Assembly: GCA_035656635.1 (NCBI GenBank)
Contig: DASRSD010000158.1
Coordinates: 32,778-96,777 of the forward strand
DNA from: Pirellulales bacterium
GTDB taxonomy: Bacteria > Planctomycetota > Planctomycetia > Pirellulales > JADZDJ01
Direction of reading: 5' to 3'
DNA length: 64,000 bases
Of the stretch, positions 22,772 through 50,055 are shown in pieces; the stretch's first letter is position 1; each line of letters begins with the position of its first letter. Made by a program: the position numbers and the translations under genes. The notes under the pieces are model-generated. The model had not been told where the DNA came from. It did no database searches and saw only the letters and a list, made by a program, of their open reading frames with translations.

Positions 22772-24697
22772 CTACTTTGATTCTAGCGCCACGACGCCGT
22801 CCCAATTAGGCGGGGGGGTCATGTTCCGTTGATTGACATAAGCGGCCAGAAAATCTTTCACGCGATCCTGTGCCGGCACGCGCTGCAATAGATCGACCGT
22901 TTGGCCCCACTGTCCGGCAATAAACGCATCCAACGCCGCCTCGTAGTCGCGCAAATTCTGATCGCTGGTGTCGGAAAATTCATGCTGCGGTGGCAATAGC
23001 TCGCTAATTTCCAGCGCCGATGCTAGGCCGTACGGGCGGACTTTGGCTACACGCCGCACACGACCCACGGTCGACGGTAACTGGCGACGAAGTGCGCTGG
23101 CGGTGGGAGGATCGAGCAGAATAGACGCATGCACAAATTTGGTCATCGATTCGAGCCGAGCGGCTAAATTTACCACCGGCCCAAACACGGTCACCTTCAC
23201 ATGATCGGTGGTGCCGATTTTACCCGCCACCGCGCGGCCCGTGGCCACGCCAATGCCAACGCGAAAATCGGCTAGCGGATGGTCGGGCTGACGGCTGGCC
23301 AATTCGAATTGCGCGCGAATGCCCAGCGCCGCCAGCGCGGCACGTTGCGGAGTATCAGCCTGTGCTAAAGGCCAACCCCAAAAGCCCATGGCCGCATCGC
23401 CTTGAAAATCGCCAATGACGCCGCCGTGATCAAGAATTTGATGCGTCATGACGCCGAGTGCTTTGCTGACTCGTTCCAACAGGCCGAGCAAATCGCTGGC
23501 GCTGCGCTCGCTGGTACGAGAAAAACCGCGCAAATCGCAAAATAACACCGAGACTTCCGTTTCCCGCGGAGCAAGCACCGTTTCCGGATCATCCGTCGAC
23601 AAAGCTTCCATCACAACCGGCGCAAAGAATTGGCTCAGCCCTGCCTGCCGGCGCCCCAGGCGGTTCAATTCGCGCAAGCTACTGAGGGTGGCTGCGGCCA
23701 ATTCCGTGAATTTAATGTCGTCGCGGAGATCGGCCACGTTAGACCGGCCCGCTTCGTCGGGCGAGTGGTGATTAAAACGACCTGCCAAATACAACGCCCA
23801 ACCGCGGCACGCATCGCCAGGCAACGGGGTGCAATAAGCCCAATCGATGCTTTCTGTAGCGGTGTAATCCCGCGAGGGAGTTTCAGTCCACATGTGCAAC
23901 ACGGTTTCGCTCTGGACAAGCGCTCTTTGAATCAGCCGTTGGCTTGGCTGAAAATTTGCGCCGGCCAGACGGCGACTGTCCCAATGCAGAAGGCGAATGG
24001 GGCTGGTTGGACGAGTTGTTTTCAATGAATTTGTGTTCGCTGCAACGGCGGGATCACTAGGTGGTTGAGCTTCCTCGGTGCCGCCAGGCATCTCGTAAGC
24101 AATCAAGGCGGCTGCATCGGCACGCGGAACGCCGGCCAGCAACAAATTCACCAGCCGCACAAACAATTCGCTATCGGAAGCGGCGTTCTTAATTACTTCC
24201 GGCAGACGCCCAAGCAATTCGATCCGTTCCTGTGCGTTATGGAACGACACCCGCCGCAACTCCGCGGCACTGAAGACTTGCTCGTGATCGGGCTGCGGCA
24301 CGTCGAGCGTGATTTGCGGATTGTCGGCCGACAGTGTGAAGCTGGTGTTGCCAATCACAAAGTGCTCGCCGGGAATCATCTGAAACTGCGTGGCTATATT
24401 GCCGTTCAGGAATACAGGATTGCGGGCCGTGGGCAACTGTTCTACATGCAGCGCTGCGCCATCCCAACAAATGCGAATATGCATTCGCGAAATGCGGTCG
24501 TCCCACGGTATTGACCAAATTCCCGCCTCTCGGCCAATGGTCACCGGCAGATTTTTGGGAATCCGCCGCCGCCAACGCTGCGAAAATTCCTGGCCTTGGG
24601 CAATAAGTTCGGGCATTGATAGATAAAAGTGAAGCTCGGATAAGGAAAGGTTGCTCCCTCGGGATTGTCTTTCCATTTTAACGATTGCGGCGGTCAT
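22772..24697 (-). CDS. FHA-domain adenylate/guanylate cyclase (class III)
   Basis: N-terminal FHA-like VTIGREAG...ISRMHIRICWDG...NPVFLNG. The C-terminal cyclase domain has VSVLFCDLRGFSR, GDFQGDAAMGFWG and KVTVFGPVVNLAARLE. The start is uncertain, with alternative Mets at 24676 and 24616. Confidence 0.8.
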   Translation of the reverse strand: MTAAIVKMERQSRGSNLSLSELHFYLSMPELIAQGQEFSQRWRRRIPKNLPVTIGREAGIWSIPWDDRISRMHIRICWDGAALHVEQLPTARNPVFLNGNIATQFQMIPGEHFVIGNTSFTLSADNPQITLDVPQPDHEQVFSAAELRRVSFHNAQERIELLGRLPEVIKNAASDSELFVRLVNLLLAGVPRADAAALIAYEMPGGTEEAQPPSDPAVAANTNSLKTTRPTSPIRLLHWDSRRLAGANFQPSQRLIQRALVQSETVLHMWTETPSRDYTATESIDWAYCTPLPGDACRGWALYLAGRFNHHSPDEAGRSNVADLRDDIKFTELAAATLSSLRELNRLGRRQAGLSQFFAPVVMEALSTDDPETVLAPRETEVSVLFCDLRGFSRTSERSASDLLGLLERVSKALGVMTHQILDHGGVIGDFQGDAAMGFWGWPLAQADTPQRAALAALGIRAQFELASRQPDHPLADFRVGIGVATGRAVAGKIGTTDHVKVTVFGPVVNLAARLESMTKFVHASILLDPPTASALRRQLPSTVGRVRRVAKVRPYGLASALEISELLPPQHEFSDTSDQNLRDYEAALDAFIAGQWGQTVDLLQRVPAQDRVKDFLAAYVNQRNMTPPPNWDGVVALESK

Positions 24698-24740: not shown

Positions 24741-24780
24741 AAAAACAGCCGCTGCTGGAATGTGGCCTCCAGCAGCGGCA
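24741..24780 (-). terminator. intrinsic terminator after the CC-doublet peptide gene
   Basis: Perfect 12-bp stem gccgctgctgga/tccagcagcggc with an 8-nt loop, followed on the minus strand by TGTTTTTATT. It lies 60 nt past the stop at 24840. Confidence 0.55.
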
Positions 24781-24839: not shown

Positions 24840-25247
24840 TTACTTGCTTTTCTTGCTTACGCCTACCGCCAAGTTCATGTGTTGGGGAAAGCAATTCGCC
24901 GGGCGAACATTACCGCATGGGTAGCAGCAACTCGAAAGATGGCTGCAACTAGGGTAGTAGCTGACGCACGGAGAAATTGGCTCCGCAATCAACGCTGGCT
25001 GGCAAACAAACTGTTCGGCCACGACGGGTTGGCAAACCGGGTAGCAAGATTCGCAGCAAGTCGGATAGCAGTAATTGCAGCAATAGTCATAGCAGCAGTT
25101 ACTGTGGCAACAATGATTGGAGCAGCAATCGTGGGGACAATTACTACACCTTGCCCCGTTGCCGCCCGTTTTGGCCATTGCATTTTGTACGGCAACGAAA
25201 CTCACTACCAGCAAAACGGACGCAACAATTTTCACGGAACGTATCAT
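24840..25247 (-). CDS. secreted cysteine-rich protein (CC-doublet repeats)
   Basis: 135 aa from the ATG at 25247, with GGAGGA upstream. The signal peptide is MIRSVKIVASVLLVVSFVAVQNAMA. The mature part has 22 Cys, including CSNCPHDCCSNHCCHSNCCYDYCCNYCYPTCCESCYPVC. Confidence 0.6.
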   Translation of the reverse strand: MIRSVKIVASVLLVVSFVAVQNAMAKTGGNGARCSNCPHDCCSNHCCHSNCCYDYCCNYCYPTCCESCYPVCQPVVAEQFVCQPALIAEPISPCVSYYPSCSHLSSCCYPCGNVRPANCFPQHMNLAVGVSKKSK

Positions 25248-25485
25248 GGCACAGTCCTCCATACTCGAACTTCTTTTTTATTTCGGCCCGGGCACGGTGC
25301 CCGGGCCGCTAAGAAATTCAGCGTGGAACGGGCCGGGATGTTACCATGGGCGAGAAAGCCTGCACCACAGCACTTACTCAGTTTCTAACCTGAACGGCAT
25401 GGAAAATTTGGATAGCGGCCAATTGAATTGCATGAAACAAAAGCGTGGGGGCGGTGCTGCTCCAATTGGTTGCGGAAGGCGCACA

Positions 25486-25519
25486 AAAAAAGCCAGGTTC
25501 CGACAAGCGGAACCTGGCT
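25486..25519 (-). terminator. intrinsic (bidirectional-looking) terminator after the CCCGG/His peptide gene
   Basis: Perfect 11-bp stem gccaggttccg/cggaacctggc with a 5-nt loop. A7 lies on the plus-strand 5' side, which is a U7 tail on the minus strand, and TAATTTTT lies on the other side. It is about 60 nt past the stop at 25578. Confidence 0.7.
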
Positions 25520-25577
25520 AATTTTTGGCTCTTTCGCATGGCCAGTACACAAGTTGTGTACTACCCCTGCGGAGAGA

Positions 25578-25916
25578 CTAGCGACGATAGCTCACGTGAG
25601 CAAACGCATACGGAGCCCGATCGCTGTTGATCGAGGTCATCGGAGCCGGGGGAGCAGGAGCGGCAGACTTGTCGTCCTTCTTCTCGCCACCGCAGCTCGG
25701 GGCTTCGCCGCCGCAGCAGCTATTTCCGCCACAGCAGCAGTTTCCGCCACAGCAGCAGTGGTGACGGTGATGATGGTGGTGACCACCGCAGCAGCAGGAA
25801 TTTCCGCCACAGCAGCAGCAACCGTGACCAGCGACGGCCACTTTCTCACCGCCCACTAGGGCGATGCCGACGATCGCGATAAATATCGCGATGCCTAAAA
25901 TCAAAATACGGTTCAT
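25578..25916 (-). CDS. membrane-anchored or secreted Cys/His/Gly-rich peptide (CCCGG repeats plus HHHHHRHH)
   Basis: 112 aa from the ATG at 25916, with GGAGGA 7 nt upstream. The hydrophobic N-terminus is MNRILILGIAIFIAIVGIALVGG. It is followed by HGCCCCGGNSCCCGGHHHHHRHHCCCGGNCCCGGNSCCGGEAPSCGG. Confidence 0.6.
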   Translation of the reverse strand: MNRILILGIAIFIAIVGIALVGGEKVAVAGHGCCCCGGNSCCCGGHHHHHRHHCCCGGNCCCGGNSCCGGEAPSCGGEKKDDKSAAPAPPAPMTSINSDRAPYAFAHVSYRR

Positions 25917-26130
25917 CCTCGAATCCTCCAACAAAAACAGGTACCTTGGCGTAACAAACACAATACCGTCCAAACTCGTCACCCCCGCTTGGGACGGCCG
26001 CCAAGCGAAGGAACCAAAAATCCGTTTACGTCCTATTGCTGATCGCGTCTGCTGGCCTAATCCTTCCGGCTGCCAAGTAATAAGCTTTTCGGATTACGCA
26101 AAGAAACGCGAATAGCTAGGTTAGGACGTT

Positions 26131-26158
26131 AAGTTAGCATGGAACGACTTCTTGTCAA
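26131..26158 (-). promoter_or_regulatory. possible sigma-70-type promoter for the CCCGG/His peptide gene
   Basis: The minus strand reads TTGACA-N16-TAACTT in an AT-rich intergenic region, about 215 nt upstream of the ATG at 25916. This is a motif match only. Confidence 0.25.
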
Positions 26159-26259
26159 GCATCCATACAACAGATTACAAAGCTCTGGAGGTATGGGTCG
26201 ACTGCGAAAAATGTTCCTTCAACTGTACATCACCTTTATGCCGCGCCTAGTGAGTAGCG

Positions 26260-26297
26260 AAAAAAAAACAGGATCCCGCAAATTGCGAGATCCTGTC
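26260..26297 (-). terminator. intrinsic terminator downstream of the lipoprotein gene
   Basis: Near-perfect palindrome acaggatcccgcaaattgcgagatcctgt, followed on the minus strand by a run of 9 T. Confidence 0.6.
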
Positions 26298-26427: not shown

Positions 26428-27039
26428 TTATCTTGCCACCGGTGCCGCCATAGCCGGCCGTTCGGCTTGTGGTTGACCAGTCTGCTGGTTTTCTGAACCG
26501 CCACTGGTGCTATCATGCAGCAATTGCTGCTTGCGGAGCATGTCTTCCGGGTCTTCAAAGTTAAGAACCAAAGGGGGCTGATCGGGAAATACTTTGGTCA
26601 CCATTCCGGCAATTCGCCACCCCTCATCCTCACGCCGCAGCACCCAGATGATATTGTCAGTGCGCGTGTGTCCTTCCGCATCAACCTGGTCTGTCCAGTT
26701 GCACCAGACGTGGGCGCCATCCTTATTGGGCGTGACGTACTCGACCTGGCCCACTTTGAATTGAGCTGTCGGACTGCCCGGGGGCGCCACGACCATTTGC
26801 ATTTCCGTGGTTTTTTGCCGTGCCAAGGGGGTCAGCATGGTGGAAGCCTGCTGATCGTTGCCCGTTCGCACCGCTTCGAGGAAATCAAAAACGGCCCGGT
26901 CTGGCGTATCGGCGGCGAAGCCATTCGCGGAACTGCCTGAGGAAACTCTGTTGTTGGCCACGTTAGCTTCCGGTTGGCTTGTTTGGCCGCAACCGACGAT
27001 AAACAGCAACAAAGTGACCGGCCAAAATTTGCGGTCCAT
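26428..27039 (-). CDS. hypothetical lipoprotein
   Basis: Trimmed to MDRKFWPVTLLLFIVGCGQ (lipobox IVGC), with GGGAAGGGAG upstream. No family recognised. Confidence 0.6.
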   Translation of the reverse strand: MDRKFWPVTLLLFIVGCGQTSQPEANVANNRVSSGSSANGFAADTPDRAVFDFLEAVRTGNDQQASTMLTPLARQKTTEMQMVVAPPGSPTAQFKVGQVEYVTPNKDGAHVWCNWTDQVDAEGHTRTDNIIWVLRREDEGWRIAGMVTKVFPDQPPLVLNFEDPEDMLRKQQLLHDSTSGGSENQQTGQPQAERPAMAAPVAR

Positions 27040-27207: not shown

Positions 27208-28110
27208 TTAATTGGCCGCCACGGGGAGCCCAGACCTGCTAGCAATGCCTTCAGAATCGGCAACCGCAAACACGCTGTGCCTGGAGAGTCCCGATTGTTT
27301 AGCGTCGGGGGGTTCTCGAACAAAAAATACATACAGCAGTAGCGCAAATAGCAGCACCACGAGACCCAACAGGACCAAGCTCAGCGTCGCCCGGATTTCT
27401 CGCTTTCCACGGTGACGTTGCCGCAACCACGTTGCCGGGGTAGCGGTGGAAGCCGTGCCGCGGACCGCCTCGGCCAAGGGATCATCCAGCGAAGAAGCAA
27501 CTGCTGAAACTGGTTGTGGTTGTCCGGCGGTTTGGTTGCTATGCCACTGTGGGAAAACCGAGGCGGCCGATTGCCAATGAGGCCAGCCTTCGCGCCACAG
27601 CATGTCATCGGGACTAACGCGTCCTTCGGAAATCCACATGCGTAGTGCGGTTTCATCAACCGGTCCATATTGCTGGCCGGCGGCAGTTTGCACATACCAA
27701 TCGGAACTGGAGCGGATGCTGGCTACCGGGGGGTGGCTCCCTGCCGGCAACAATAAATCCTCCGCAGCCCCTGACCCGGACAGGGCCGAAAGATCAACTC
27801 CCAAATCGTTCGGCTTTGGCGAGGCAGTAATCATCGACCCATTTGGCGACGACAGCGCCGGCGTTTGCCGAGACACCACGGCCGGCTCAGAGGGAATGGT
27901 CGTGATTTCTTCCTCTTCGGCATCATCTTCATCATCCGCGACGTCGGTCGCCGAGCTGGCAATCGCTGCCGCCTTGGTACGATCGCGCTTTACGCTCTCC
28001 AGGGGAATATCAATCCGCACGCCGCACTTTGGGCATAAGCCTTTCTTGCCCGCCAGAAAGGACTTTACATGCACCTTATGCCCATTGGGGCAATAAAACT
28101 TGATGCCCAT
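27208..28110 (-). CDS. zinc-ribbon / GYF_2 (DUF4339) domain protein with C-terminal TM helix
   Basis: N-terminal YCPNGHKVHV...CPKCGVRI zinc ribbon. The GYF_2-like segment is WYVQTAAGQQYGPVDETALRMWISEGRVSPDDMLWREGWPHWQSA. The C-terminal TM helix is LSLVLLGLVVLLFALLLYVFFV. Confidence 0.65.
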   Translation of the reverse strand: MGIKFYCPNGHKVHVKSFLAGKKGLCPKCGVRIDIPLESVKRDRTKAAAIASSATDVADDEDDAEEEEITTIPSEPAVVSRQTPALSSPNGSMITASPKPNDLGVDLSALSGSGAAEDLLLPAGSHPPVASIRSSSDWYVQTAAGQQYGPVDETALRMWISEGRVSPDDMLWREGWPHWQSAASVFPQWHSNQTAGQPQPVSAVASSLDDPLAEAVRGTASTATPATWLRQRHRGKREIRATLSLVLLGLVVLLFALLLYVFFVREPPDAKQSGLSRHSVFAVADSEGIASRSGLPVAAN

Positions 28111-48077: not shown

Positions 48078-49118
48078 TCAGCGTCGCGCCGTGGCCATTT
48101 CTTTTCGATTGCTCACCGTAGTGGCAGCGGAACTGGACGCTTGCGGCGTGCTGTTTCGAGCGACTTGTCCGCGGAGTGTTTCCGGCGCAAGGAATGCCAA
48201 GCTTGCCACAATCATCATCACGGCAAAGCTCACCGAGCCGCCAATCACCGCCAAAGCGGCCCACATCAATGCGCCCAGTACCAGTAAAATGGGCCGGGCC
48301 AGCGGATTCCAAATTAAAAACACAAAGCACAATTCATAAATCAAAATGGCATGCGTAAAGAAATTCACGATGTATTCAAACGCCAAACCTATTCGGCTTA
48401 ATCCCGTCAAGTCGATCAATCGAGATTCGGGTCGGGCCATCAGCCACCACAGGGCGGTTCCCTGCCACCACGCGGCCCCTTGTAACTGGGCAATGATCAT
48501 GGCGGCGTAAATCAGCGTCAAATGAATTTGCAGCAATCGAATGGCAACGGTTGCGGCGCTCGACCAGTAAATTTCGGATTCGGCCGTTCGGATGGCGCCC
48601 ACTTCTCGCTGACGACGCCGGCGTCGGAGCCAAGCATCGATCGAAAATTTGGCGCCCGAGGGACCCAAGCACAAATAGAACATGACCAGCGCCAAAACTT
48701 CGTCCACCGGCCGCATCATCATCGGCATGCGGTGAATGCACGACAATACATACACCAGCGATGCCACGGTGGCCACTCGGCTGAATAATCCAATCAGCAT
48801 CATAACCAGTGCCGCCAGGCCCAGCCCGTAAATCAACCACAACTGCGAGGGCGAACCGGTCCAATCGAACAGCGAGAATGCGGCTTTCGAGGCGTCGCCT
48901 GATGCTCCTTGCACAAGCTGTGCTAATTCAGCAGACAGTAATCCATTGGGCCCAAACCAGCTTTGCAAGTCGGGCAGCAAACTCAGGTACCACCATAACG
49001 CGACCACTGCCGTCAGCACGCGAATCAGCGACAACACAATTGCGTCGCTGGGCGCGAACCAAAATCGGGTCCAGCCCGCTCCAAATCGGCTGCCAGCGGT
49101 GCGAAGGTAATTTCCCAT
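48078..49118 (-). CDS. HTTM-domain (vitamin-K-dependent-carboxylase-like) integral membrane protein
   Basis: FWFAPSDAIVLSLIRVLTAVVALWWY at the N-terminus and a polytopic profile, as in bacterial HTTM proteins. Confidence 0.7.
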   Translation of the reverse strand: MGNYLRTAGSRFGAGWTRFWFAPSDAIVLSLIRVLTAVVALWWYLSLLPDLQSWFGPNGLLSAELAQLVQGASGDASKAAFSLFDWTGSPSQLWLIYGLGLAALVMMLIGLFSRVATVASLVYVLSCIHRMPMMMRPVDEVLALVMFYLCLGPSGAKFSIDAWLRRRRRQREVGAIRTAESEIYWSSAATVAIRLLQIHLTLIYAAMIIAQLQGAAWWQGTALWWLMARPESRLIDLTGLSRIGLAFEYIVNFFTHAILIYELCFVFLIWNPLARPILLVLGALMWAALAVIGGSVSFAVMMIVASLAFLAPETLRGQVARNSTPQASSSAATTVSNRKEMATARR

Positions 49119-49155: not shown

Positions 49156-50055
49156 CTAATTCGGTTTTTCGGGGGGCAAGGTCAAATCATTTCCGTCGCC
49201 ATTCAAGGGAAGCGGCAATTTTCGATTGGTGTTGGTGGAGCTGGACCCACTTTTGCCCCCCGGCGGGCCCGGCGGCGTATCCGTAGAAGACGAATCACCA
49301 GCCGGCGGGTTTTGCAGGCGGCTGCGGCCACGCGGGCCGGTCACCGGGGCTACGTCGCGCTTGGCCTCGCCCAAATCGTGGACTTCCCCCTGCCCCAAGC
49401 TGTTCAGCGTTATATCGCCCGCGTAAACATTGGCAAACGTGCGGGCATTGTTTGGGTCATGCAGGCCAGGGTCGTCGGCTCGGGCTTCTTCCATCGACAG
49501 CGGCTGGTGGCGGCGAATTTGCACGCGCACCTCTTTGGCCCCATTCTGCTCTAATAAATTTTCACTAATTTTTGTCAGCAAGGTTTTATCGGGCGCATCC
49601 TCATAAAACTGCATGGCCAATGTCCGCACCAAGGCTTTATATCGCAAGCGCTGTTCGCCGTGAGAATCGGCCGGAGGAAATTGCCGCGCTTCGGTGTGGC
49701 CGTCGGGATAGGTTAACGTCAGGTCCACTGTGTGGTCGTCATCGGTGGAATCGCCATACGATAGCCAGTAATCGTGCGGGGTATCCAGGCACAACGCATA
49801 CATGTATTGGGCCAGAACCGGAGTGGATTTCAGCGCCAGGAACAACTTGGAATCGTTGGGCGAATCGATATCAACCACCGGAGGCGAAAGCAGCGCCGGA
49901 GCGTTCGGATTCCACGTTAGCGCCAGCGCCACGCCAAACAAATGAAACAAAATAAACAGCGTAACCAAAGCCCGAACGGTTTCGTTGGGCATTTTTGCCG
50001 TCGGCGGCGGCAAATTAGGCTGCGTGGCGGCGGGGGAGGACGGAGAGGTGCTCAT
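49156..50055 (-). CDS. hypothetical membrane-anchored protein, upstream partner of the HTTM gene
   Basis: 299 aa with one TM helix (LVTLFILFHLFGVALALTW) and a low-complexity Pro/Gly/Ser tail. It ends 37 nt upstream of the HTTM gene on the same strand. Confidence 0.55.
   Translation of the reverse strand: MSTSPSSPAATQPNLPPPTAKMPNETVRALVTLFILFHLFGVALALTWNPNAPALLSPPVVDIDSPNDSKLFLALKSTPVLAQYMYALCLDTPHDYWLSYGDSTDDDHTVDLTLTYPDGHTEARQFPPADSHGEQRLRYKALVRTLAMQFYEDAPDKTLLTKISENLLEQNGAKEVRVQIRRHQPLSMEEARADDPGLHDPNNARTFANVYAGDITLNSLGQGEVHDLGEAKRDVAPVTGPRGRSRLQNPPAGDSSSTDTPPGPPGGKSGSSSTNTNRKLPLPLNGDGNDLTLPPEKPN

Follow-up and report, generated by a model that had tools for sequence, protein, structure and literature searches.

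The stretch of DNA analysed here, to which we refer as the window (64,000 nucleotides (nt) from a Pirellulales bacterium; GenBank assembly GCA_035656635.1, contig DASRSD010000158.1), carries on its minus strand an open reading frame (ORF) for a small Cys- and His-rich protein of 112 amino acids (aa), MNRILILGIAIFIAIVGIALVGGEKVAVAGHGCCCCGGNSCCCGGHHHHHRHHCCCGGNCCCGGNSCCGGEAPSCGGEKKDDKSAAPAPPAPMTSINSDRAPYAFAHVSYRR, that begins MNRILILGIAIFIAIVGIALVGGEKVAVAGHGCCCCGGNSCCCGGHHHHHRHHCCCGGNCCCGGNSCCGGEAPSC. An initial annotation of this DNA had described the Cys/His composition of the protein, its hydrophobic N-terminus and a GGAGGA ribosome-binding site in front of the gene, all of which are present as reported; in residues 31-75 there are 16 Cys, 8 His and 11 Gly. 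The gene, which we defined from the ORF list, the sequence and the homologues, and its flanking signals are laid out as follows:

25924..25929, minus strand: ribosome-binding site GGAGGA, 7 nt 5′ of the ATG
25578..25916, minus strand: coding sequence of the 112-aa Cys/His-rich predicted exported protein, with an ATG start and its stop codon at 25578..25580
25830..25916, minus strand: residues 1-29, consisting of MNR, a hydrophobic segment of 18-20 residues and GG-EK-VAVA; predicted Sec signal peptide or uncleaved N-in signal anchor
25692..25829, minus strand: low-complexity core, residues 30-75, GHGCCCCGGNSCCCGGHHHHHRHHCCCGGNCCCGGNSCCGGEAPSC, with 16 Cys, 12 Gly and 8 His
25708..25759, minus strand: tandem DNA repeat of 18 base pairs (bp) encoding CCCGGN(S), 2.9 copies with 91% matches (Tandem Repeats Finder)
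25581..25622, minus strand: conserved C-terminal tail DRAPYAFAHVSYRR, with a Pro/Ala spacer (residues 76-98) 5′ of it
25491..25519, minus strand: intrinsic terminator of the gene, with a 12-bp stem (8 G-C pairs), a 5-nt loop and a T7 run

Close relatives of the protein are 112-134 aa long, the differences in length being in-frame insertions and deletions, and in an alignment of 53 loci TTGGAGGATTCGAGGATGAA is nearly invariant at the start codon. The initial annotation had also called the terminator and taken the gene for a real monocistronic unit. The terminator is there with its T7 run, its stem measuring 12 bp rather than the 11 bp reported, a trivial difference. That the gene stands alone is borne out by its own ribosome-binding site and terminator, by the termination of the upstream gene as well (26297..26267) and by the strong hairpin and T-run that lie 3′ of the stop codon in 75 of 81 related loci.

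In all, 16 close homologues of the 112-aa protein came up among 5.8 billion proteins in a word-indexed search, none of the 16 named and none with a Pfam domain, and a profile search of 1.84 billion cluster representatives extended the family to 263 protein clusters (at 50% identity) at E ≤ 1e-3 and to 120 at E ≤ 1e-10. When one genome per species was scanned, relatives were found in at least 102 species genomes, all of them Planctomycetota and mostly metagenome-assembled genomes of Pirellulales; every named match of the family is from Planctomycetota, and Anatilimnocola sp. NA78 is a cultured carrier of the gene. The family statistics given below refer to 83 loci for codon, motif and neighbour counts, to 186 unique full-length members for composition and to 146 representatives for the TIGR03000 domain, while the architecture was read from 82 fetched loci translated from the matched ATG. 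The architecture common to these is a near-invariant N-terminus, MNRxLxxGIAxFxAxVGIALxGGEKxAxAGHGC, followed by a variable Cys/Gly core and a Pro/Ala-rich spacer. Profile searches named no known family: at E ≤ 10 hmmscan against Pfam yielded 0 families for the window protein and for five of six relatives, the sixth giving LED_rpt only (E 5.3, non-significant), and for the window protein there was no NCBIfam match at E ≤ 1 and no hit in a profile search of PDB sequences. This agrees with the initial annotation, whose author knew of no characterised family with this architecture. The literature search found no paper on the family either, which is previously undescribed and, across Pirellulales, has no name, domain, structure or paper.

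Comparative sequence evidence shows that the 112-codon Cys/His frame is a real gene, missed by its source annotation, and with it we have very probably found a real family of exported Cys-rich proteins. For the first 25 codons in the 83 loci, entropy averages 0.60, 0.18 and 1.19 at codon positions 1, 2 and 3, respectively, and this order (3 > 1 > 2) is the signature of purifying selection on the Cys frame. The two terminal motifs stay in one and the same frame although indels abound in the core between them, so the frame is maintained, and it is intact end to end in 8 of 10 members of the window’s subclade (lengths 112-134 aa). A frame-conservation check had been proposed along with the gene, with the Ala-rich ORF 25428..25859 on the opposite strand named as the competitor; we ran it, and orthologues keep the Cys frame, the antisense ORF not being the conserved one. 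The latter lies in exactly the opposite phase to the Cys frame. Were it the conserved gene, its first codon position would be the most variable, and we therefore rejected it as a shadow ORF that is open only because TGC and GGC, when reversed, give GCA and GCC.

These data also bear on the idea that the locus does not encode the protein at all, being instead an RNA gene, a DNA repeat or the opposite-strand and off-frame ORFs of the source annotation, to which we give next to no credence. What speaks for it is that the source record has off-frame 70-aa and antisense 83-aa ORFs at this place, that antisense Ala-rich ORFs are open in 27 loci and that internal frame changes occur in two close loci (L001, L002) and three more distant ones (L007, L017, L019). 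It is contradicted by the evidence: the codon-position entropy tracks the Cys frame, the amino-acid sequence of both terminal motifs is kept in more than 100 species whose cores vary, the ribosome-binding site is invariant and at the correct distance, and an antisense ORF in the opposite phase stays open automatically. As to the frame changes, in L001 (10001-10354) and L002 (10001-10363) the core makes a short excursion into the Ala frame and is back in frame before the tail, and adjoining genes (for a major facilitator superfamily transporter and a cyclase) are split too, while in L007, L017 and L019 the Cys-rich gene is frame-shifted; the core of these five is thereby read in the Ala frame, in part or wholly. 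All five loci are on contigs with names in the style of long-read assemblies. The frame changes are likely sequencing errors in the repeat, although they may be real compensated frameshifts.

In the source record (JGI 3300036855, contig Ga0376680_0000055) the Cys ORF is replaced by two other gene calls, one of 83 aa in antisense and one of 70 aa in the +1 (Ala) frame, which indicates that gene callers systematically miss or garble this family. Neither the exact 112-aa product nor a 134-aa variant with a GTG start was found in a collection of 15 billion proteins that does contain neighbours from the window’s contig.

The N-terminal region, which had been read as an export or anchor signal, has the sequence features of a signal for the Sec pathway and signal peptidase I: a charged n-region, a hydrophobic h-region and small residues at -3 and -1. 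Across the 83 loci M1, N2, R3, G8, A10 and A14 are invariant, and F12, V16, G17, A19, L20 and G22 nearly so. At the predicted cleavage site -1 is Ala in all members, -3 is Ala, Val or Ile and -2 is variable (V, Q, S, N, E, K, Y, L, M), with A-x-A|G or V-x-A|G present in 160 of the 186 unique members and a predicted helix breaker (GG) at about -6/-7 from the A-x-A|G site. The -3/-1 rule for signal peptidase I is well established, and the window protein is probably cut by this enzyme after Ala29. Since the h-region, at 18-20 residues, is long and its conservation far exceeds that of usual signal peptides, the segment may instead serve as an uncleaved signal anchor or engage in a specific intramembrane interaction. 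By the positive-inside rule, the conserved Arg3 would keep the N-terminus on the cytoplasmic side of the membrane, with the Cys-rich part on the outer side. We also inspected the sequence for a type IV prepilin-like signal, and rejected this as there is no Gly/Glu pattern at the right spacing.

In the family as a whole the protein has a median length of 134 aa and the core spans some 70 aa, of which a median of 16 (23%) are Cys, with 22% Gly, 7% His, 12% Arg plus Lys, 1.5% aromatic and 3% aliphatic residues; in the window the core is 35% Cys. The number of core Cys ranges from 2 to 25, odd in 102 members and even in 84, and there is no conserved Cys spacing: composition alone is kept. The odd and even numbers and the lack of fixed spacing argue against a defined disulfide-knotted fold. 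The make-up differs by clade, Cys and Gly being joined by His, Arg/Lys, Asp or Ser, with CHGR, CCGRDR and CSGK repeats, and the core appears to evolve by slippage of short repeats. Judging from these sequences, we favour a core that is a flexible polymer working through its composition, by metal-thiolate binding, thiol redox chemistry or non-specific cross-linking. Haem attachment through CXXCH was considered as well: some members have CHGCH, the window protein does not, and the motif is not family-defining.

The C-terminal tail follows the consensus ...(D/E)R(A/S)PxxF(R/S/H)xVS(F/Y)RR in 77 of the 186 members (about 40%), the window protein and distant ones included; by locus, it is found in the seven closest homologues and in 36-40 of the 83 loci. 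In 5 of the 146 representatives (P0073, P0095, P0099 and P0128 among them) the same N-terminus and a Cys/Tyr/Gly-rich region are followed by a C-terminal TIGR03000 (plancto_dom_1) domain. These fusions tie the N-terminal module to a broader and equally uncharacterised set of planctomycetal exported proteins.

The initial annotation passed over the promoter and a structured leader, though the approximately 330 nt 5′ of the ATG are the most conserved DNA at the locus: between the window and its subclade, DNA identity is 82-92% over the last 245 nt before the ATG and 64-75% for the adjoining lipoprotein coding sequence. The elements of this region are:

26159..26250, minus strand: conserved region of about 90 nt 5′ of the -35 box, with a CTACAGTTG box and CCCA boxes (consensus of 53 loci)
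26131..26158, minus strand: putative sigma-70-type promoter, TTGACA (26158..26153), a 16-nt spacer and TG-n-TAACTT (26139..26131)
25917..26128, minus strand: conserved 5′ leader (putative 5′ untranslated region), about 212-215 nt
26054..26099, minus strand: apical hairpin of the leader 5′ domain, a UAAUCC..AAAG-stem-loop with the conserved loop ACAGGGC
25982..26011, minus strand: leader helix P_a, CCUUCGCUUG (26011..26002) paired with CAAGCGGGGG (25991..25982)
25965..25970, minus strand: GACGGU (family consensus GACGGC), which forms helix P_b with the P_a loop GCCGUC (25998..25993, invariant)

In the alignment of 53 loci TTGACA is invariant and TG and TAAnnT are nearly invariant, with 228-289 nt (mostly 235-255) between the -35 box and the ATG. 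We infer the promoter from this invariance and spacing; a scan with consensus promoter sequences makes no call at this place, the -10 box matching at 3 of 6 positions. The region 26159..26250 possibly holds regulator-binding sites. A sigma-54 promoter was tried and rejected, since the TGGAACA-N4-TCGCA box on which it would rest is conserved in the window’s subclade only and not family-wide.

An nhmmer profile of the leader matches 5′ of the gene in about 65 of the 83 loci, and the end of the match always coincides with the ATG. The window leader folds with a minimum free energy (MFE) of -74.3 kcal/mol (z = -2.0). Run on MAFFT alignments of the leader, RNAalifold returned the invariant GCCGUC/GACGGC stem only, and no alignment brought the 5′ domain into register; the other leader helices were proposed by hand and then checked by pair counts and two covariance models. 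Helix P_a has compensatory changes in 5 of 6 pairs in the MAFFT alignment, with a covariation of 0.219 against 0.122 for shuffled alignments (0/500 shuffles) and at most 0.086 for slid controls. When the 54 loci aligned by covariance model R2 are used, P_a has 10 pairs, 81.8% of the cells are paired and 8 pairs have compensatory changes, the covariation being 0.318 against 0.155 (0/500) and slid controls reaching at most 0.124. For P_b, 98.7-99.1% of the cells are paired, and with hardly any variation in either strand, covariation speaks neither for nor against the helix. Together P_a and P_b possibly form an H-type pseudoknot (order a5′-b5′-a3′-b3′), or else a nested alternative. The 5′ half of the leader is a long hairpin, the apical part of which is matched by covariance model R1 in 41 loci, always 5′ of the gene; here 68% of the cells are paired and covariation is 0.298 against 0.196 shuffled, which lends the hairpin moderate support. 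Neither model has any other match in 1.35 Mb of sequence from the family loci.

In the MFE fold of the window leader UUCCUUC pairs with the Shine-Dalgarno (SD) sequence and CUUGGCG with CGCCAAG, and P_b is nested. P_a and the modelled fold exclude each other, which may point to an on/off switch, and the pairings of this fold are not kept beyond the window’s subclade. Sequestration of the SD sequence as a family-wide mechanism was rejected, as the duplex energies (-1.8 to -10.8 kcal/mol) are inconsistent and convincing in the window’s subclade only. Searches of the 4227 Rfam families gave chance-level matches only, far below gathering scores, for the window at E ≤ 1, and no match at the leader of seven diverse loci at the gathering threshold. 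We regard the leader as a candidate new regulatory RNA. Separately, a near-invariant palindrome, GGUACC (GGTACC in DNA), preceded by UUACG, is found family-wide 20-35 nt 5′ of the ATG (in the window at about 25940..25950) and could be an RNA element or a DNA operator.

Around the gene, and elsewhere in the window, lie the following genes of interest:

26428..27039, minus strand: lipoprotein gene, 203 aa, with lipobox ..VGC and an NTF2-like fold, followed by its own terminator (26297..26267)
24840..25262, minus strand: gene for a second, Cys/Tyr/Pro-rich predicted secreted protein, 140 aa, signal ..AMA|K, terminator at 24779..24748
49156..50055, minus strand: gene A, 299 aa, one N-terminal transmembrane helix and an orphan alpha/beta domain (identified by tblastn and from the ORFs)
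48078..49118, minus strand: gene B, 346-aa polytopic membrane protein, a remote HTTM / SdpB-like relative

The lipoprotein gene lies 5′ of the Cys-rich gene on the same strand in 69 of the 83 loci, with a remarkably constant gap of about 500 nt (450-550 nt), and is absent from about 10 loci with enough flanking sequence. All of its 466 homologues are hypothetical proteins. Its AlphaFold2 (AF2) model (pLDDT 80) was matched by Foldseek to CaMKII hub and ketosteroid-isomerase-like folds (E 4e-4, probability 1.0).

On the other side, gene B is found 3′ of the Cys-rich gene on the same strand in 56 of the 83 loci, and in 30 of these 56 BLAST detects between them the divergent gene A, which encodes proteins of about 230-300 aa and which gene B overlaps or abuts. 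In the window the A-B pair is 23 kb away from the Cys-rich gene, the linkage being broken in the window’s whole subclade. As judged from the terminator that follows the Cys-rich gene in 75 of 81 loci, the gene is monocistronic throughout the family and A-B form a separate transcription unit. Protein A has no Pfam or NCBIfam match at E ≤ 10, and its low-confidence AF2 model (pLDDT 62) gave no significant Foldseek match, only a weak, chance-level T-fold-like one. Protein B is matched by PF05090 (HTTM) in 3 of 20 members (best E 4.8e-7) and by TIGR04033 (export_SdpB) with E 4e-8, at 33 bits against a cutoff of 178; a profile search of the PDB with protein B found nothing.

The second Cys-rich protein is unrelated to the 112-aa one, has no Pfam match and occurs at this position in the window’s subclade only, in the former place of A-B; the source annotation puts a 229-aa antisense gene over its ORF. 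Its repeats (CCSNHCCHSNCCYDYCC...) recall keratin-associated proteins. Further out we note a protein with a zinc ribbon, a GYF_2 domain and a C-terminal transmembrane segment (27208..28110, minus strand), encoded upstream in 31 loci, and downstream an FHA plus adenylate/guanylate cyclase protein (22772..24697, minus strand). Both genes belong to the conserved chromosomal context. Among the conserved neighbours there is no metal-homeostasis gene (transporter, sensor or metallochaperone) and no enzyme for the maturation of peptides that are ribosomally synthesised and then modified post-translationally (RiPPs).

We tentatively lean towards the reading, held with distinctly less than full conviction, that the gene encodes an exported or tethered metallothionein-like buffer for metals or redox whose level is set by the leader. 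The gene would be transcribed alone from the TTGACA / TG-n-TAAnnT promoter, through the structured leader, which would set the amount made, to its own terminator. The product would enter the Sec pathway by way of the MNR + hydrophobic + GG-EK-AxA signal and, upon cleavage after Ala29, yield a periplasmic polypeptide of about 83 residues starting with GHGC; uncleaved, it would remain attached to the inner membrane, its C-terminus facing outwards. The core would then act as an extracytoplasmic sponge of thiolate (plus imidazole) groups for soft metal ions (Cu, Zn, Ni, Cd) or for thiol redox buffering, the tail, DRAPxAFxxVS(Y/F)RR, may dock to a partner, and the NTF2-like lipoprotein as well as A and the HTTM/SdpB-like B would be candidate handling or maturation partners. 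The buffering function is suggested by composition: low aromatic content, a variable number of Cys, a core built of repeats and the lack of a fold match point to a sponge rather than a folded domain. The conservation of promoter and leader, the covariation in P_a and the terminator in 75 of 81 loci speak for dedicated regulation, and a precedent exists in the bufferins, Sec-exported Cys-containing metal chelators (PMC11626156).

Several observations weigh against this reading. No metal transporter, sensor or metallochaperone is found among the conserved neighbours, and in the Rfam search the leader matched no known metal riboswitch. Free thiols are hard to keep reduced in the periplasm. The number of His varies widely, from 2 to 19 residues, and many members are strongly basic and His-poor, with CHGR and CCGRDR repeats, which is not typical of metallothioneins. 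Finally, the conservation of the hydrophobic segment (18-20 residues), far above that of an ordinary signal peptide, suggests a membrane role that a buffer leaves unexplained.

The neighbourhood data are relevant to a different proposal, namely that the gene encodes a precursor from which processing or modification yields a secreted peptide: after Sec export A and B would act on it as SdpA and SdpB do on SdpC, recognition would be through the conserved N-terminus and the hypervariable Cys-rich core would become the product. The initial annotation had dismissed a modified product because no RiPP maturation enzyme is close by. While it is correct that there is no radical-SAM, YcaO, LanM or MNIO gene within 10 kb of the Cys-rich gene, the dismissal fails at the family level, where an HTTM/SdpB-like protein and its partner lie downstream, on the same strand, in 56 of 83 loci. 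B being a remote relative of HTTM and SdpB, the retention of the A-B pair in this genome (48078..50055) and the combination of an invariant N-terminal segment with a hypervariable core, as in toxin and RiPP precursors, would all fit such a precursor; SdpC, too, has a signal peptide, and its processing requires SdpA and SdpB (PMC6818787). Nevertheless, we consider this unlikely. The Cys-rich gene has its own terminator in nearly all loci, so A-B are transcribed separately, their linkage is lost in the window’s whole subclade, A resembles neither SdpA nor any solved fold, and the conserved neighbours include no immunity gene or exporter. Typical toxin loci differ, moreover, from this gene, which most often occurs as a single copy in a chromosomal context that is itself conserved, and adjacency inside one order may be mere inheritance.

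Similarly unlikely, in our estimate, is a structural role in which the protein is abundant in the planctomycetal envelope: intermolecular disulfides would cross-link its core, as has been proposed for the YTV wall proteins, which are Cys-rich too, and its Pro/Ala spacer and ..(Y/F)RR tail would tether it to another envelope layer like a small Lpp-like connector. Odd as well as even Cys numbers and a core conserved in composition only would suit random cross-linking, just as the spacer and the conserved terminal tail would suit a tether; a strong invariant promoter, a strong ribosome-binding site and terminator and a small monocistronic unit would be in keeping with abundance. The second Cys/Tyr/Pro-rich secreted protein that adjoins in the window’s subclade and the TIGR03000 domain in 5 of 146 relatives point the same way, and planctomycete wall preparations do contain Cys-rich proteins (PMC8567305). 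On the other hand, neither the YTV family nor another family of wall proteins was matched, some 60% of members lack the tail, ligand binding would be the more natural reading of the His runs and CHGR repeats, and a regulatory leader of about 215 nt is unexpected for a constitutive structural protein. The same hydrophobic segment that sits uneasily with a buffer could also belong to a small membrane-anchored regulator or sensor, with its uncleaved transmembrane helix in contact with a partner in the membrane and its Cys/His region as the sensor of redox state or metals: it is conserved on all faces (G8, A10, F12, A14, V16, G17, A19, L20, G22), its 18-20 residues suffice to span the membrane and the conserved neighbours include membrane proteins. 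We find this improbable, as the -3/-1 Ala with a variable -2 better fits cleavage by signal peptidase I, the core is hypervariable in both length and sequence and no sigma, anti-sigma or kinase gene is strictly linked.

Whichever of these applies, the family marks an annotation gap: it is present in at least 100 species of Pirellulales/Planctomycetia and has neither name nor domain. A promoter and leader conserved beyond the adjoining coding DNA are the usual mark of a physiologically important, tightly regulated product, and at least Anatilimnocola sp. NA78 is available as a cultured carrier for experiments. If the preferred reading of a metal/redox buffer is true, this is a new exported metallothionein-like family in a phylum with a poorly understood envelope biology; if the link to HTTM is true, it offers a route into the unknown chemistry of the bacterial HTTM enzymes. 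One may go further and suppose that the leader is a new riboswitch-like class of sensor confined to Planctomycetota and, at the same time, that a bacterial membrane enzyme of the HTTM (vitamin-K-carboxylase-like) type, together with its orphan partner, has the peptide as its natural substrate or client. This joint proposal is a long shot; if true, it would for the first time open HTTM proteins beyond the Bacillus Sdp system to functional study, and likewise the management of metals or thiols in the enlarged Pirellulales periplasm. We found no paper that links HTTM to Cys-rich peptides.

Among known systems, SdpC/SdpAB and YitM/YitPO of Bacillus subtilis combine a small signal-peptide protein with an HTTM-family protein and a small partner (PMC6818787), an arrangement that the 56 loci with gene B may parallel. 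The differences are that the similarity of B to SdpB is remote and below cutoff, that A is not SdpA-like, that the Cys-rich gene and A-B are separate transcription units, unlinked in the window, and that the Cys-rich peptide is without a C-terminal hydrophobic toxin domain. The YTV cell-wall proteins (PMC8567305) are also planctomycete-specific, exported and Cys-rich; however, neither Cys-rich ORF of the window has a YTV domain match, and the 112-aa protein is of far smaller size, with repeats rich in Gly and His where theirs are YTV repeats. The TIGR03000 domain is itself planctomycete-specific, and a full-text literature search found no paper on it; the MNR..GGxxxAVAGHGC N-terminus is shared by the proteins with this domain in 5 of the 146 representatives, whereas the window protein and the other 141 lack the domain. 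As for the leader, it resembles structured cis-regulatory leaders (riboswitches and pseudoknot leaders) in being long and of near-constant length and in having invariant loops, a covarying helix, a possible pseudoknot and, within the window’s subclade, the alternative fold in which UUCCUUC pairs with the SD sequence; it differs in falling outside all 4227 Rfam families, and its regulatory role is predicted from sequence.

The protein itself is best compared with metallothioneins and metal-storage proteins (SmtA/BmtA, MymT, Hpn/Hpn-like, Csp1). Like these, it is small, has CC/CXC/CXXC motifs and a core with 23-35% Cys that includes His and has few aromatic or aliphatic residues, and composition rather than sequence is conserved. 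In contrast to these, it has no sequence or profile similarity to any of them, its number of Cys is not fixed and it adds an export/anchor signal, a Pro/Ala spacer and a conserved tail, although Csp1 is exported too. Hpn, which is cytosolic and about 40-50% His, is a poor match for a protein that has 9 His in 112 residues, a family core median of 7% and an export signal. With the bufferins, MNIO-modified Sec-exported RiPP copper chelators (PMC11626156, PMC12452194), it shares a Sec-type signal, Cys, a predicted periplasmic destination and possibly metal buffering. The initial annotation had taken export as the feature that sets the protein apart. This stands in so far as Hpn and metallothioneins mostly have no export signal, and it does not stand in general, since exported Cys-rich metal binders are known, the bufferins with their Sec signals among them (PMC11626156). 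Unlike the bufferins, it has no MNIO (DUF692) or DUF2063 partner, neither in the source-record Pfam tables for ±10 kb around the Cys-rich gene and around A-B nor in the set of conserved neighbours, and no DUF2282/BUF_6/12Cys domain (Pfam, E ≤ 10), and it is far denser in Cys, with a repetitive core. As far as its sequence can tell, the Cys-rich protein is thus metallothionein- or bufferin-like in its composition and predicted location only.

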